A stretch of 18,856 nt of DNA from a virus (taxonomy: Duplodnaviria > Heunggongvirae > Uroviricota > Caudoviricetes), in the IMG/VR virus record IMGVR_UViG_2630968500_000001, one strand, 5' to 3'. The stretch's first letter is position 1, and the number at the start of each line of letters is the position of its first letter. Position numbers and translations under genes: made by a program. This document shows, one piece after another, positions 2,894-18,720 of this stretch. The notes beneath the pieces were generated by a model, which saw only the letters and a program-made list of their open reading frames with translations, was not told the origin of the DNA and did not search any database.

Positions 2894-3972
2894 CAGAACG
2901 GGTCCTCCTGTACTCTGGCTTTTTTCTTTTTCCGCGCGCCGGGGGCTTCGGGTTCAGGCAGATAAGCATCAGGTGGGCCGACACGGATTTCCGTCAGGGT
3001 GCCGTTCTGGTCCTGAGTAAACGTGACTTCCGAAACAAGCAGTTCGGTATTGTCGAAACCACAGACCGGATCAAAGACAATCACCCGCTGGTTGGGCTGC
3101 CACAGCGTACCGTTACCCTGTCGCCAGCCCTGCACCACATAGGTGGTTTCATCCGTCCGCGCCGCCCGTTGTCGGGCTTCAAAGTCCGCACGGGCAATAC
3201 AGCCTGCCCCCGTAGCCTGCCCTGTCTGCCTGATATACATCGGACGGTAACGGGCAATAAATGCGTCCTCTGTGCGGGCCCGCAGCGCGGTGGTGGTGGC
3301 CTCACCGAAATCATCGTCGTTTCCGGCACGCTGCCCCGCCACCTGGTAAACAGAAAACCGCTCCCGGATACTCTTCTCCGTATCGCAGGAAAGGATGTTT
3401 TCCCCGAGTACCAGCGCAGTATGTGCCCGCGTTGAGCCAATACCGCCAATCACCAGCCTGCCGTGCGGGTCGTCGTAAGCCAGTGCCTGCTGCTGACCGA
3501 GTATTTTGTTGATTACCTCAATCACCGTTTCACCGTGATCAGGCTGGACATCAGGAATAACACCCGACGGCGCACCGTTGTTCACCACCTCAATGCCGAA
3601 AGGCGCAGCAAGCGCCTGCGCAATCTGTACCAGCGATCGTCCATTAAACTGTGTCGGTTCGGCTGCACAGTCAATCAGGTCAGCGGTCAGACTGCGTCCG
3701 GCAATACCGGTGCTGACCGAACGGGCATCGTAACGAACGGGCGTCGCCTCCACCCAGCCGGTGATCACCAGCTCATCACCAATCAGCACCTCCACTTTTG
3801 AACCGTTTTTAATGCGCGGCTGAAGCGTGGTGATACCCTCATCTCCCGGCCACTGGCGGGTGATCTCCACACTGAAATCCCGCGCCAGCCGTTCAATACC
3901 GGCACCGATGCGCACCGATGTCCAGCCATTCCACTCCCGGCCATTTACCCGTAGCGTGACATTGTCGTTCAT
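2893..3972 (-). CDS. Tail/baseplate hub protein (Mu P / gpD-like, Mu gp44-like)
   Basis: 359-aa ORF in the expected position after the DNA circulation gene. Size fits gpD/Mu P family proteins. Confidence 0.65.
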   Translation of the reverse strand: MNDNVTLRVNGREWNGWTSVRIGAGIERLARDFSVEITRQWPGDEGITTLQPRIKNGSKVEVLIGDELVITGWVEATPVRYDARSVSTGIAGRSLTADLIDCAAEPTQFNGRSLVQIAQALAAPFGIEVVNNGAPSGVIPDVQPDHGETVIEVINKILGQQQALAYDDPHGRLVIGGIGSTRAHTALVLGENILSCDTEKSIRERFSVYQVAGQRAGNDDDFGEATTTALRARTEDAFIARYRPMYIRQTGQATGAGCIARADFEARQRAARTDETTYVVQGWRQGNGTLWQPNQRVIVFDPVCGFDNTELLVSEVTFTQDQNGTLTEIRVGPPDAYLPEPEAPGARKKKKARVQEDPF

Positions 3973-5801: not shown

Positions 5802-7746
5802 TATGCGTATAGCCAACATCGTGATTTATATCAAAACCGCTGGATCGCGTTTCCATAACCCGCATACCCGGAGGCGAATTCACAAAAGAGACCTTGATCT
5901 CACCGTCAACTTTTGGCGCAGAAGCTTTGTTAATCATGAAGGGATTCGGGCCTGTAGCATCGGAGGCGTTGTTTGACTGAGCCGGATCTACCGCCGGATA
6001 AGGTGTGTATCCCCGCGCCGGTATTCCCGTCCCATAAGCATCATAAGCACCCGCGCCCCACTGCGCCGAGTTAATGGCATCGACCGTGTCACCGGAGGCG
6101 TTGTTTGACTGCGCCGGATAAGGAGTGTATCCCCGTGGCGGTATTCCCGTCCCATAAGCATCATAAGCACCCGCGCCCCACTGCGCCGAGTTAATGGCAT
6201 CGACCGTGTCACCGGAACTGTCGGTAAACCACTCAATAATTGGCTTCAGCTTGTCCCACATATCCTGAAACCACTTAACAACCGGTCCCCAGTTATTGAT
6301 TACCATCCCCAGCGGCGACCAGGCAAAAACCTTCTTCAGAAGTTCCCAGCCAGCCTCAAAATAAGGACCAATGGTTTCCCAGAGCTTCTTGAAATAAGGT
6401 CCAACAACATCCCAGTTAGTGATAATTAATCCCGCAGCCAAGGCAATCGCCGTCGCAATCATGCCAATCGGCGTCATCGACATGATCCTGCTGACGATAC
6501 TGATGGCACTGCCCACGCCCATCAATCCCAGTTTCAGAATCGCAAGACCGGCAGCAAGCCCGACGACGCCGCGAATAACCCGGGGATTTTCATCCGCAAA
6601 CTTCGTGAATTTTTCCCCCAACTCCCCCAGCCATTGCGTGATATTTTTGGCGTCACCAGAAAATGCGCCGCCAATAGCCGCAAGGCCGTTAGTTGCGGTC
6701 CCCGTCATTGCCTCCCACAGGTTGGACAGCGTACCAAGCTGTGCCTGAACACGTTTATTCAGGCTGGCCTGTTTATTCATCTTCTGCTGGATCTGATCGT
6801 AACCATCCTTTCCTTTATCGATTAGTGCATTGACCACCTGAAGGGTTTCGGCATCATCACCAAATATTGCCTTAAGTACGCCTGTTCGCTTAACGTCGGT
6901 CAGTTTTCGCAGCTTTGCCAGTTGCCTGAACATGTTATCAAGACCGCCAAAACTTCCTTTGCCGTCAGTAAAATCGAGCTGTACCCCGAGTTTCTGGCGG
7001 GCCATGACTTTATTGACGTCCCTGATTTTCTTAACGCTTAATCCGGACTGGATAACTTTTCGCAGGGCATTACCTGCCGACTCCCCGTTCATCCCCATCT
7101 GATCCATCATGACGCTGATGGGAGCAAGGCTCTGTGCAGCCTGAAGACCGTCCTTGTTCACCATCTTCAGAACAGAACTGGTTTTAGTGAAGAAGGACAA
7201 CATGTTGGTATCGTCAACGCCCAGATAAAACGCCTTCTGGATAGTGTCGAACAGCCCCATCATGTCTTCTGACGCCGTTCCGGTAGCATCCTGCATCTTT
7301 GCGGCAAACTCAGCAGCCGCTTCCGGTGTTTTTTTCAGTTGTACCGCAAGATAAGCTGTCGCTTTACCCACACCACCCAGAATGTTTTCTGCCGGGATCC
7401 CCTGACGCACCAGCATCTGCATCATGTTCTGGAAATCAGCCGTTGTACCGGGTAGCTGGTTACCCAGGCCAATAGCCAGTTTATTGATGTCCTGAAAGCT
7501 CTTTCCAACCTCGCCGTTCGCATCCATCATGGCGACTTTCAGCCCGGTGGCGGCGTTTTCCTGATCGGCATAAGATTTCAGGGAAAGCGTCAGACCCGCT
7601 GCCAATCCGCCACCAAGCGCCAGCCCACCCTGTGACGCTTCTTCCGCCTGGCGTTTAAATCCCCGGATTTTCTTTTGCATTTTCGACAGCGCGGGAGAAA
7701 GCCTGTCGACACCGGTGATCAACGCCTTAAGCTCAAATTCAGCCAT
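5791..7746 (-). CDS. Tail tape measure protein
   Basis: 651-aa ORF directly downstream of the frameshifted chaperone pair. Has a central hydrophobic segment (…GLAAGLAILKLGLMGVGSAISIV…TAIALAAGLIITNW…) and a C-terminal tandem repeat. Confidence 0.85.
   Translation of the reverse strand: MAEFELKALITGVDRLSPALSKMQKKIRGFKRQAEEASQGGLALGGGLAAGLTLSLKSYADQENAATGLKVAMMDANGEVGKSFQDINKLAIGLGNQLPGTTADFQNMMQMLVRQGIPAENILGGVGKATAYLAVQLKKTPEAAAEFAAKMQDATGTASEDMMGLFDTIQKAFYLGVDDTNMLSFFTKTSSVLKMVNKDGLQAAQSLAPISVMMDQMGMNGESAGNALRKVIQSGLSVKKIRDVNKVMARQKLGVQLDFTDGKGSFGGLDNMFRQLAKLRKLTDVKRTGVLKAIFGDDAETLQVVNALIDKGKDGYDQIQQKMNKQASLNKRVQAQLGTLSNLWEAMTGTATNGLAAIGGAFSGDAKNITQWLGELGEKFTKFADENPRVIRGVVGLAAGLAILKLGLMGVGSAISIVSRIMSMTPIGMIATAIALAAGLIITNWDVVGPYFKKLWETIGPYFEAGWELLKKVFAWSPLGMVINNWGPVVKWFQDMWDKLKPIIEWFTDSSGDTVDAINSAQWGAGAYDAYGTGIPPRGYTPYPAQSNNASGDTVDAINSAQWGAGAYDAYGTGIPARGYTPYPAVDPAQSNNASDATGPNPFMINKASAPKVDGEIKVSFVNSPPGMRVMETRSSGFDINHDVGYTHIGR
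5961..6216. repeat. In-frame tandem direct duplication (132 bp + 120 bp) inside the tape measure gene
   Basis: Copy 1 at 5961-6092 and copy 2 at 6093-6212 (the match continues 4 nt to 6216) are identical except for 3 substitutions (6004/6124, 6016/6136, 6018/6138) and a 12-bp indel (5980-5991). The encoded peptide SGDTVDAINSAQWGAGAYDAYGTGIP(P/A)RGYTPYPA...QSNNA is repeated. Confidence 0.9.
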
Positions 7747-15476: not shown

Positions 15477-17210
15477 TTAAAGCGAGCGGATCCCATAGGA
15501 CTCAATGTGGTCAGACAGCGTGTCTTCTTTCTCGTACAGCATGGCTCTGCCAACCGCCATAATCAGCGCAACTGCACCATCGATTTTGTTTTCCGCCTGC
15601 TCTTTGACGGGCTTCACCACATCATCGTTACCCGGAATGGTTTTGCCGACCACGTTGCCGATACACCAGGTCATGATGGGATTGCCATCATGATGAAAGC
15701 GCCCCGATTCAATTGCCGCTTCCAGCTCTTTCATCGGGTCGGACATGTTGGTGTAGTTCTGAATGATAGTGACGGGATTCAGGTCTTCATCAGCAAGGTC
15801 ATGTGACAACCCGGTCGCCCCGAAGGGGTCGATGGGTGACTCACTGACCGGGCTGATTTTGTTCGCCGCTTTGGCCTCCTCGAGGATGTAGCGATAATCC
15901 ACCTCCGCACCATCGGTAACGGTCAGAACGCCCATTTCCACCCATTTCTGAAAGCGTTCGGCTGTCCGTCGATCTTCATTTTTCTCGACGCTGTACACCG
16001 TGTCATACGGTACCCAGAAACGCGGGGCCACACTGTAGTAATGCGTTTTACCGTCAATCTCGCGGGTATAAAGTCGCGCCATGCTGTTCATATCCAGCTT
16101 ACGCGCCAGGTCAAAGGCCAGAATGCACGGCTGCCCCTCGAACTGCTCAAGGGTCAGTGATTTATCCTCGCAGCTCTGCCAGCTCACCAGGTTGAAATAC
16201 GCCGAACGCGCCGACACCCAGATATTGAGGTGTTTTGTTTTAAAGACGTTTGCCAGACGGGCGTTATTTTTCGCACGCTGCTGCTGACTTAACAAAAATT
16301 CGCGATAAACCGACACGCCAATATTTGGATTGGCTTTTTCCAGCACCTGCGGGTCGGTCCAGTCGTCACCTTCATCAACGGTATAGATGATCCCGAACAG
16401 TTCATCGTTAGGCACCGAGCCGTTGAGCATCTCGATGACTTCCCGCCGCTTGTCGTAGCACGGCCCCTCAATGTTGTACCCGGCGGTGGTGATGGCCCAC
16501 ATCAGTGGCTGACGTCGCGCCCCCATCCCGGTAAGCATTGTGGTATAAAGCGCATCGGTGGCATGCTCGTGATATTCATCAACCACGGCACAGTGGGGTG
16601 ATGAACCATCACCTGGGTTGCCGATCAGCGGTTCAAACCGCGCGCCATCCTCCGGACGGTTCATGTTTGAGGCGTTAACCTCAATCCCGAACGCTTCCGT
16701 CAGCATGGGTGTGCGTTTACACATCAGTCGTGCCGGGCGAAAGACTTCCCACGCCTGTTTCTCTGTCGTGGCACCGGAATACACTTCCGCGCCAAACTCG
16801 TTATCACAGGCAAAACAATACAGGGCAACACCGGCAGAGATTGCTGATTTGCCGTTCTTACGGGGGATTTCGGTGTACACCTCCCGGAAGCGGCGCAACC
16901 GGGTGCCTTTATTGACCCAGCCAAACGCACAGCAGATCACAAATAGCTGCCACGGCTCCAGCGTGATGGGCATCCGTTTGAATGCCCACTCCCCCTTGGT
17001 GTGCGGCAACAGCTGAATAAATTTCGCGGCCCGTTCAGCCAGGTCCTTGTCGAAGCGGTAACGAAACGACTTACTTTTTTCCGCCATCAGGTCATCAAGA
17101 TGGCGCTGGCAGGCCTGAATCACAAACTGGCAGGCCACAATCTTTCCGCGCACAACATCACGGGCATACTGATTGGCAGCATTTACGTTGGGGTAAGATT
17201 TCCGGCTCAT
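15477..17210 (-). CDS. Terminase large subunit
   Basis: 577-aa ORF. Its ATG (17210-17208) overlaps the small-subunit stop in an ATGA arrangement. Size and position are typical of TerL. Confidence 0.85.
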
Positions 17211-17701
17211 GACTCGATGATTTTCAGAAACGGGTTAGTGGCTTTCTTCTGCCCCGCCAGGCCAATCAGACGCTGGCGGCTGCTGGGGTCGAGTCCGAGC
17301 ATTGCCCCCGTGCTGCTCATCTCGGACTCCTGTTCTTTTTTGGCGGTCAGCTCCGGATTTTTGACCCTGCCGCCCATTGCACCGGTGATGGTGTTGCCCT
17401 GTATGGCAATATTTTTCACGGCACGTCGCCAGAACTCATAGGCCACGCACCACCGCTCAAGCACCGCGAGGTCAGTCACGCACAACAGGCCCTGACCGCA
17501 GAGTTCTTTGGTTGTCAGTTGCCACATGATCGTGGCGAGAGGGAGATCTTCTTCAGCGAACCACTCTGGTGGCTCAACACCTTTGATGGGCGTAAAAACA
17601 GGTTCATCTTTGTTCAGGGCTCGCTTGCCGGGGTTTCCGGCCAGCGCCTTGCGCGCCGTTGGCTTGGGGCGACGCCCGGAACGCCCCGCCGTTCCAGCCA
17701 T
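17207..17701 (-). CDS. Terminase small subunit (P27 family-like), start revised to ATG at 17701
   Basis: The track ORF starts at GTG 17710, which has no usable SD spacing. The ATG at 17701-17699 ([27 protein letters not shown]…) has AGGAG 9 nt upstream. The basic N-terminus is typical of P27-family small terminases. Confidence 0.75.
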
Positions 17702-17710
17702 ATGCGGCAC

Positions 17711-17826
17711 TCCTGGTTAAATTTCATTTTTCGCGGGTATAAAAAAACGATGGGGCGGGCAGTCCGGAAGACGTCAGGTCACAGAGATTTGACCCGCCCC
17801 TCCCCTCAGGCAGTTGAGAATCATTA
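17711..17826. other. Intergenic region between the HNH and terminase genes with a GC-rich inverted repeat; candidate cos / packaging-initiation region
   Basis: GGGGCGGG (17752-17759) and CCCGCCCC (17793-17800) form an 8-bp inverted repeat around a 33-nt spacer that contains the palindrome GACGTC. On the minus strand the downstream arm is followed by ATCG and then a run of seven T. In HK97-type genomes the HNH gene and terS flank cos (established knowledge); placing cos here is inference. Confidence 0.3.
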
Positions 17827-18177
17827 TCACTTCAACCGTTCACGGGCCGTCTTCGCCTTATGACACGGCCAGCACAGACTCTGCAGATTACTGTCTGCAT
17901 CAGTGCCGCCATGCGCTTTAGGGATGATGTGGTCAACGGTTTTCGCCTCACGCACCACACCGGCACGCAGACATAACTGACACAGGCCTTTGTCACGCTT
18001 CAGCACACGCGCGCGGATAACGTCCCACTTCGAACCATAACCGCGCTGGTGACGGGACTGACCTGGCTTGTATTGCCTCCAGCCTTCGCTTTTGTGGCTT
18101 TCACAATAGCCTGACGGATCTGTGGTGGTATGGCGGCAACCGCGAACACGGCAGGCTTTTGGGATTCGTGGCGGCAT
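17827..18177 (-). CDS. HNH endonuclease (packaging-associated)
   Basis: 116-aa ORF with Cys pairs and the motif DHIIPKAHGGTDADSNLQSLCWPCHKAKT (HNH signature). GGAG lies upstream of the ATG at 18177. It is adjacent to the terminase genes, as in HK97-like phages. Confidence 0.8.
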   Translation of the reverse strand: MPPRIPKACRVRGCRHTTTDPSGYCESHKSEGWRQYKPGQSRHQRGYGSKWDVIRARVLKRDKGLCQLCLRAGVVREAKTVDHIIPKAHGGTDADSNLQSLCWPCHKAKTARERLK

Positions 18178-18339
18178 ATGTACTAATCTCCGATTTATCC
18201 AAATTTCACTGCCATAATGCCGACATTCTCTGCCATTGTTGGCTCCGTTTATCCGTTAAAAGGGATATCAGTTAAGTTATCCCGTGTAGGGTATAAGCCA
18301 TTATCAAAGCCACTCTGTAGGGAATGGCTTTTGTAATAA

Positions 18340-18720
18340 CTACTGTTCGCTTAGCTTCTGCTTCAGCAAGTAACCTTCGAGCATCCAGATTTTGTTTACA
18401 GCATTCTGCCTGGCAATCTTCCGACCAATTTCTGCATCAAAGTTTTCAGGGCTTGCACAGGCACTCTCTCCGGTGACGGTGAAGCCATTCTTCAGCACCA
18501 GTACGCAGAAAGTGAGCAACTTCAATGGTGATAAATCACGATCGCCTTCTTCTGGTTTTTCCCTGCCACAATATTCGTTGCTGGAAATGGCACCATTTCG
18601 TCCATCATAAGCAGTAAAGTAATGCTCGCTTTTAATCACGTCTTCGATGTGCTGCGGGGTGATTCGCGGTGCCGTTTGGCCTTTCTCAACGATTTCTTTT
18701 TCGATTTGCTGGTCGTTCAT
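18340..18720 (-). CDS. Conserved phage protein of unknown function (126 aa)
   Basis: ORF MNDQQIEKEIVEKGQTAPRITPQHIEDVIKSEHYFTAYDGRNGAISSNEYCGREK… in an AT-richer segment upstream of the HNH gene. I cannot assign a family from the sequence alone; a possible relationship to N4 gp49/Sf6 gp66-like proteins is a low-confidence recollection. Confidence 0.45.
   Translation of the reverse strand: MNDQQIEKEIVEKGQTAPRITPQHIEDVIKSEHYFTAYDGRNGAISSNEYCGREKPEEGDRDLSPLKLLTFCVLVLKNGFTVTGESACASPENFDAEIGRKIARQNAVNKIWMLEGYLLKQKLSEQ

Follow-up and report, generated by a model that had tools for sequence, protein, structure and literature searches.

The window, the whole stretch of 18,856 nucleotides that was analysed, carries on its - strand the gene order HNH endonuclease, terS and terL, as recognised by Pfam (PF01844, PF05119, and PF03354 plus PF20441, respectively). 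The HNH gene occupies 17827-18177 (PF01844, E=2.3e-16); its product was 36% identical to HK97 gp74 (E=2e-10), aligned full-length with the GVE2 HNH endonuclease (HNHE, 5h0m; E=8e-12), and serves as an accessory nuclease in packaging. The next gene, terS (17207-17701, PF05119, E=3.7e-20), encodes a P27-family small terminase of 164 aa that was 98-99% identical to the TerS of SfV and SfII, and its stop is overlapped (17207-17210) by the start of terL (15477-17210), whose product is a large terminase of the HK97 type with 26% identity to HK97 gp2 (E=4e-30). Downstream of terL lie genes for the portal, an S78 protease and an HK97-fold capsid protein (PF05065), and then those of a Mu-like contractile tail, with tail and baseplate genes for the sheath, gp44/46/47/48-like proteins and DNA_circ_N. 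A head of the HK97 type joined to a Mu-like contractile tail is the combination typical of SfV-like myoviruses. On the other side of the HNH gene, a Phage_gp49_66 gene was found at 18340-18720, also on the - strand. The DNA between these two genes (18178-18339) is a mosaic junction; it contains a small inverted repeat, AAAGCCA...TGGCTTT, at about 18295-18330, and is unlike SfV, where the HNH gene comes after the lysis genes Rz/Rz1.

The preliminary description had placed a GC-rich inverted repeat in a 116-bp spacer flanked by an HNH gene and terS. The identity of both flanking genes was confirmed by the PF01844 and PF05119 matches; the length of the spacer had to be corrected. The program-made list of open reading frames started terS at a GTG at 17710, and this start was rejected. 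A ribosome-binding site AGGAG could be read from the sequence at 17710-17714 (- strand), with an ATG following 8 nt later at 17701, and the latter start matches both the annotation of SfV orf1 and the homologues of 164 aa. With terS starting at the ATG at 17701, the HNH-terS spacer measures 125 nt, not 116.

The inverted repeat itself was found where it had been described. Its arms, GGGGCGGG (17752-17759) and CCCGCCCC (17793-17800), show perfect 8-bp complementarity and are separated by a core of 33 nt that holds GACGTC (17770-17775). The T7 run claimed to follow on the transcribed (-) strand was also present, as seven A on the + strand at 17741-17747, starting 4 nt past the repeat. The window contained 16 perfect 8-bp inverted repeats with loops of 3-40 nt, vs. 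12 ± 4.3 in dinucleotide shuffles, and a single all-G/C 8-bp repeat vs. 0.28 expected from the shuffles, whilst 4.5% of shuffled 116-nt spacers held at least one perfect 8-bp repeat. By chance statistics alone the repeat was thus only marginally significant, and these statistics cannot decide its role; what gives the repeat its significance is the identity of its arms and not their pairing.

The cohesive end and its identity with SfI

When SfI virion DNA was sequenced by run-off, a gap of 10 nt with respect to the prophage came to light, 5'-TGCCCGCCCC-3', from which cos packaging was concluded (PMC3636060). In the window the same 10-mer occupies 17752-17761 (- strand), running on the transcribed strand from 17761 to 17752, and comprises the repeat arm nearer to terS and a further CA. 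In SfI, the record closes with ...GGACTGCCCGCCCC and resumes directly past the 10-mer, with GTCGTTTTTTTATACCCGCG. A stretch of 56 nt, which begins with the G-rich box and includes the whole overhang, was identical between window and SfI, and window and SfV were identical up to the terS ATG; the first position past the overhang (+1) is A in the window and in SfV, whereas it is G in SfI. Identity to SfV, SfI, SfII and SfIV was 95-98% for the region as a whole and 96-98% for the flanking region, and ST64B-like phages of Salmonella reached 84-88%; several of these relatives have linear records that begin or end within the HNH-terS spacer. The flanking HNH gene and the P27-family terS and terL genes are the same in SfI, SfV, SfII and SfIV (96-99% identity), whereas the DNA on either side of the HNH gene, directly past its stop and ahead of its start, varies between members of the Shigella Sf phages. 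According to the SfIV authors, one and the same cos site is found in SfI, SfII, SfIV and SfV, which package their DNA site-specifically (PMC3851460), and restriction data together with the conclusions of the respective authors point to cos packaging for SfI, SfV and SfIV (PMC3636060, PMC3851460). The overhang TGCCCGCCCC was invariant in 77 close relatives.

The SfI authors reported a gap without stating its polarity (PMC3636060). Recessed 5' ends would give a gap in run-off sequencing, and two homologues with known ends were available for comparison. The HK97 cos site has a 10-nt 3' overhang (PMC9410871, PMC11331095), and the HK97 record ends ...ATGAC CGCCGCCAAA and starts GTTTGAATTT... In phiE125 and phi644-2 there are ten-base 3' extensions, with the right end 5'-CGCCCGCTTC-3' (PMC2920897), and the phiE125 record ends ...GGGAC CGCCCGCTTC and starts GTCGAATTTTCACGCCCGCGAAATT, exactly at the published extension. 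The experimentally defined ends of SfI, HK97 and phiE125 fell in the same alignment columns, so that the HK97 and phiE125 overhangs are positional homologues of the 10-mer mapped in SfI. Run-off logic and these two homologues together argue for a 10-nt 3' overhang in the window as well.

The HNH-terS spacer is therefore very probably, on the strength of this identity, the cos packaging site of a temperate phage of the SfV/SfI type, whose head and terminase are of the HK97 type and whose contractile tail is Mu-like. Since the SfI experiments were carried out on essentially the same sequence, the cos reading offered by the preliminary description is established, and the ends of HK97 and phiE125 at the same alignment positions agree with it; the end position within the window rests on identity with SfI and SfV. 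The left virion end would start at 17751 and run into terS, and the right end would stop at 17752, with the HNH gene as the last gene ahead of it, so that the window would, as had been anticipated, span the ends of the virion genome. The predicted nicks fall at 17752/17751 on the - strand and at 17761/17762 (CA^GT) on the + strand. In window coordinates the records of SfV (U82619.2) and SfIV (KC814930.1) both start at 17768, that of SfII (KC736978.1) at 17826 and that of ST64B (AY055382.1) at 17717, and the vB_E438 record (PQ789832.1) starts 26 nt upstream of the phiE125-mapped end; these starts miss the mapped end and are conventions, not true termini. The site as such is ordinary and already known, having been mapped in SfI, and would belong to the HK97-type class of HNH-assisted cos sites with 3' overhangs.

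Conserved architecture of the cos region

Junction regions of distant relatives were aligned by eye and then formally. A search for the locus based on the HNH gene gave only relatives with 96-99% identity, which were usable for polymorphism and not for covariation, and pairs were counted on 28 diverged cos regions. Read on the transcribed strand, the layout was G-box, (G/T)AC, 10-nt overhang, RTC, an AT-rich segment of 13 nt, ACCCGCGAAAAAT, and the ribosome-binding site with terS. The cos region was strongly conserved and its flanks varied.

The first element in the window (17786-17807, - strand) is a G-rich box followed by TCAAATC, reading GAGGGGAGGGGCGGG-TCAAATC on the transcribed strand, and it holds the HNH-proximal arm of the repeat (17793-17800). 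With regard to a possible G-quadruplex, the G-box here has just three G-runs of at least three. A G-box with TCAAATC (or GAAAAAG) was found 23-25 nt upstream of the cut in HK97, in phages of Escherichia, Klebsiella, Burkholderia and Moraxella, and in IMG/VR contigs, the distance being exactly 24 nt in the window, HK97, Kp4885-1, vB_E438 and Mcat32. The G-box was conserved although overhangs and TerS families differ between these phages. Between it and the cut lies a spacer (17762-17785 in the window, - strand; 24 nt) that contains GACGTC and ends in GGAC at the cut; its length was held at 23-25 nt across all lineages whereas its sequence was poorly conserved except for the terminal (G/T)AC. 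GACGTC, which had been highlighted in the preliminary description, was rejected as a conserved core, as it sits in this least conserved and variable stretch and is absent from other lineages.

Within 17748-17765 and the homologous columns, the cohesive end itself was flanked by two-fold symmetric half-sites, (G/T)AC ... (G/A)TC, and the dinucleotide AC stood ahead of every predicted overhang. The site of the bottom-strand nick reads CA^GT in the window and CG^GT in HK97 and in the Klebsiella, Burkholderia and Moraxella relatives. Beyond the overhang, the left virion end would begin with the AT-rich segment ATCGTTTTTTTAT (17739-17751, - strand), which contains the T7 run; this segment was a constant 13 nt in the lineages with a P27-family TerS, with the consensus RTC(R) followed by a T-rich part. 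It is followed by ACCCGCGAAAAAT (17726-17738, - strand), at +14 to +26 from the cut, a candidate TerS recognition site of the cosB kind. An IHF site (WATCAANNNNTTR) at TCAAATC or at the T-run was also considered and was dropped after a poor match by eye.

The spacing of these elements was surveyed by a pattern scan of IMG/VR for a G-box and a following CCCGCGAAA separated by any 33-63 nt, which returned 66 unique sites. The gap was 47-49 nt in 51 of them, and the remaining 15 were spread over 28 other gap lengths (about 0.5 each), so the geometry is fixed. The predicted overhangs behaved differently: 20 distinct 10-mers were obtained from the scan sites and the loci of other relatives (two of them 1-nt register shifts from indels) while the G-box stayed GGGGnGGG.

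Comparison with HK97 gave the closest parallel in organisation. In both, cos lies between the HNH gene and terS, and TerL (gp2) and the HNH protein (gp74) are homologous. Both share a C-rich 10-nt overhang after GAC, a G-run plus TCAAATC exactly 24 nt upstream of the cut, and downstream a CCCG with an A/T-tract, the place where HK97 TerS binds. No sequence similarity was detectable between the window TerS and the HK97 TerS, gp1, which belongs to a different family, whereas the predicted fold of the window TerS was most similar to that of HK97 TerS. Differences were also found in the overhang (CGCCGCCAAA in HK97), in the 8-bp inverted repeat, which HK97 does not have, in the offset of the TerS site (+19 in HK97 vs. 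+15 in the window) and in the distance from the HNH stop to the G-box (about 250 nt in HK97 vs. about 20 nt in the window). The latter distance indicates that the G-box travels with cos and not with the gene. The Burkholderia phages phiE125, phi1026b and phi644-2 encode a P27-family TerS (50% identity) next to an HNH gene and carry, at the position homologous to the overhang of the window, the ten-base 3' extension CGCCCGCTTC; they also share the spacings of 24 and 13 nt, the GCCCGCGAAATT box and a G-rich box upstream. They differ in the sequence of the overhang, in having GAAAAAG in place of TCAAATC, and in their siphovirus tail. A more remote parallel is lambda, whose cos is tripartite (cosQ-cosN-cosB), with an upstream element, staggered and partly two-fold symmetric nicks, and a downstream small-terminase site by the terminase genes. 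The cos region of the window shows the same tripartite layout, whereas lambda has 12-nt 5' overhangs, needs no HNH protein, carries cosB R sites with IHF, has an unrelated TerS and cosB, and shows no sequence similarity.

Two observations on individual genomes were made during the survey. In Vibrio phage P2 (KY658676.3, locus positions 435-801), whose TerS was 49% identical to that of the window, the HNH gene (mis-annotated as 'holin') ends 6 nt before terS; this gap is too small for a cos spacer, so that the cut site must lie elsewhere or within coding sequence. The contig IMGVR_UViG_2711768073_000020 carried two full cos motifs (3497-3563 and 6368-6434) about 2.9 kb apart, which could reflect a tandem or partly duplicated prophage, a satellite using the cos of its helper, or an assembly artefact.

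Pairing of the repeat and alternative roles

Perfect 8-nt complementarity between overhang and G-box was confined to the TGCCCGCCCC lineage. The other lineages reached 3-6 nt at most, the exception among the 19 other 10-mers being one that represents an indel-shifted register of TGCCCGCCCC. In the 28 diverged cos regions, no covariation was detected in the eight pairs of the repeat: pairs were formed in 72.3% of cases (eight positions × 28 sequences) vs. 72.5% after shuffling, with 303 of 500 shuffles reaching the observed value, and the covariation score was 0.189 vs. 0.196 in shuffled data. When the partner was slid by -1, 68% of the positions were still paired. Pairing at the level of the shuffles points to a composition effect of a G-rich segment facing a C-rich one. 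Among the 77 near-identical relatives, left-arm variants (GGGGTGGG, GGGACGGG and GGGCGGG) occurred uncompensated.

The preliminary description had proposed, as its second reading, that the repeat and the T7 run form an intrinsic terminator or attenuator, which would end HNH/lysis transcription before the terminase operon, either in place of cos or in addition to it. An all-G/C stem of 8 bp followed by U7 can indeed be drawn on the transcribed strand, and the minimum free energy fold of the segment contains this stem (-26.9 kcal/mol). The z-score of the fold was, however, only -0.88, and 37 of 200 shuffles folded at least equally well. The loop measures 33 nt and the U-run begins 4 nt past the stem, unlike the short-loop hairpin with an immediate U-tract that is expected of such terminators; a promoter and terminator scan gave no match in the spacer, and no Rfam match (E<=1) was obtained on either strand of 17400-18300. 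The folds of 10 lineages gave no support, the T-run was conserved where the overhang cannot pair with the G-box, and neither the pair counts, similar in slid registers, nor the uncompensated left-arm variants showed any compensatory change. In lambdoid phages, late transcription must read from the lysis and HNH genes across cos into terS in the replicating circular or concatemeric genome. Taken together, these data make a terminator or attenuator improbable.

Slightly less probable still is that the repeat itself acts as a recognition structure at cos, either as a cruciform or hairpin or as two inverted GGGCGGG half-sites for terminase or the HNH protein. Both arms lie within conserved cos elements, a G-rich box and a C-rich overhang co-occurred in all lineages, and loose G-rich/C-rich pairing was predicted in several of them. 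Against this stand the restriction of the perfect complementarity to a single lineage, the pairing at shuffle level, the HK97 overhang CGCCGCCAAA, which does not pair with the G-run of its own cos, and the 33-nt loop, which disfavours cruciform extrusion. That the repeat is a chance occurrence with no role and the phage packages headfuls from a pac site elsewhere agrees with the marginal shuffling statistics, but has next to no probability given SfI ends defined at exactly this sequence, the cos packaging indicated for SfI, SfV and SfIV, the HK97-type TerL with its adjacent HNH gene, and a cos region strongly conserved between varying flanks.

The 8-bp repeat is thus an accidental by-product of a conserved G-rich box facing the C-rich overhang of this lineage, and the hairpin is not a functional unit. 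From the two readings of the preliminary description, the cos site stood and the terminator did not, and neither the repeat nor the GACGTC on which attention had been drawn is the unit that functions.

Putative packaging mechanism and significance

The cut at the cos site rests on experiments with relatives whose sequence is identical or positionally homologous: terminase cleaves concatemeric DNA on both sides of TGCCCGCCCC (17752-17761), which would leave 10-nt 3' overhangs. For the remaining steps the following course of events may be proposed. By analogy with HK97, whose TerS binds CCCG and an A-tract at +15 to +29, TerS would bind the conserved ACCCGCGAAAAAT at +14 to +26 (17726-17738). 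HK97 TerS requires C15-T29 (CTAACCCGATTTTTT), where it recognises the C:G pair at position 21 together with the shape of the A-tract next to it (PMC11331095). The nicks would be made by TerL, together with the HNH protein, in the symmetric flanks (G/T)AC-N10-(G/A)TC on the two strands; the two-fold symmetry of these flanks suggests N^RTC as the nick site of either strand. The terminase-adjacent HNH endonucleases of phages of Gram-positive bacteria nick CG^GT, as does that of GVE2, and CA^GT is nicked off target (PMC3592412); the predicted bottom-strand nick, which falls at CA^GT in the window and in most relatives at CG^GT, would match this measured specificity. A division of labour in which TerL cuts one strand and the HNH protein the other has been proposed (PMC11331095), and the pattern agrees with it. 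It is speculative, however, to ascribe the bottom-strand nick to the HNH protein, since HK97 gp74 has been reported to be non-specific. The T7 run would be part of the AT-rich left end, and the model would require no hairpin or terminator from the repeat or the T7 run.

The G-rich box with TCAAATC, 24 nt upstream of the cut, would be a further element of cos, possibly acting like cosQ at the termination of packaging; we infer a candidate cosQ-like or terminase/HNH site from its position and conservation. If cosQ-like, it could signal pausing or termination either to the translocating TerL/portal or to the HNH protein. No description of the G-box element or of the symmetric nick flanks was found in the accessible literature, outside which some key papers lie. 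We only tentatively suggest that the G-box is an undescribed third, cosQ-like element of HK97-type cos sites and that the symmetric flanks set the nicks through an HNH-type N^RT(C) specificity.

Of 5426 complete E. coli genomes, 1188 (22%) contained the HNH-terS region, and E. coli strain G5 (NZ_CP060065.1) was 100% identical over 17500-18200. The virion ends of a very common family of E. coli and Shigella prophages, already mapped in SfI, would thereby be placed at 17751/17752 in the window. The practical use lies in annotation: within this family the pattern (G/T)AC-N10-RTC-N10-CCCGCGAAA with the upstream G-box locates cos to the base, and several GenBank records (SfV, SfIV, SfII, ST64B and vB_E438) begin away from the true ends. 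The comparative anatomy also yields testable predictions for packaging of the HK97 type, namely the sequences that position the nicks and the upstream cosQ-like element, and the remaining lead may be the conserved G-box as such an element together with the symmetric flanks of the nicks.
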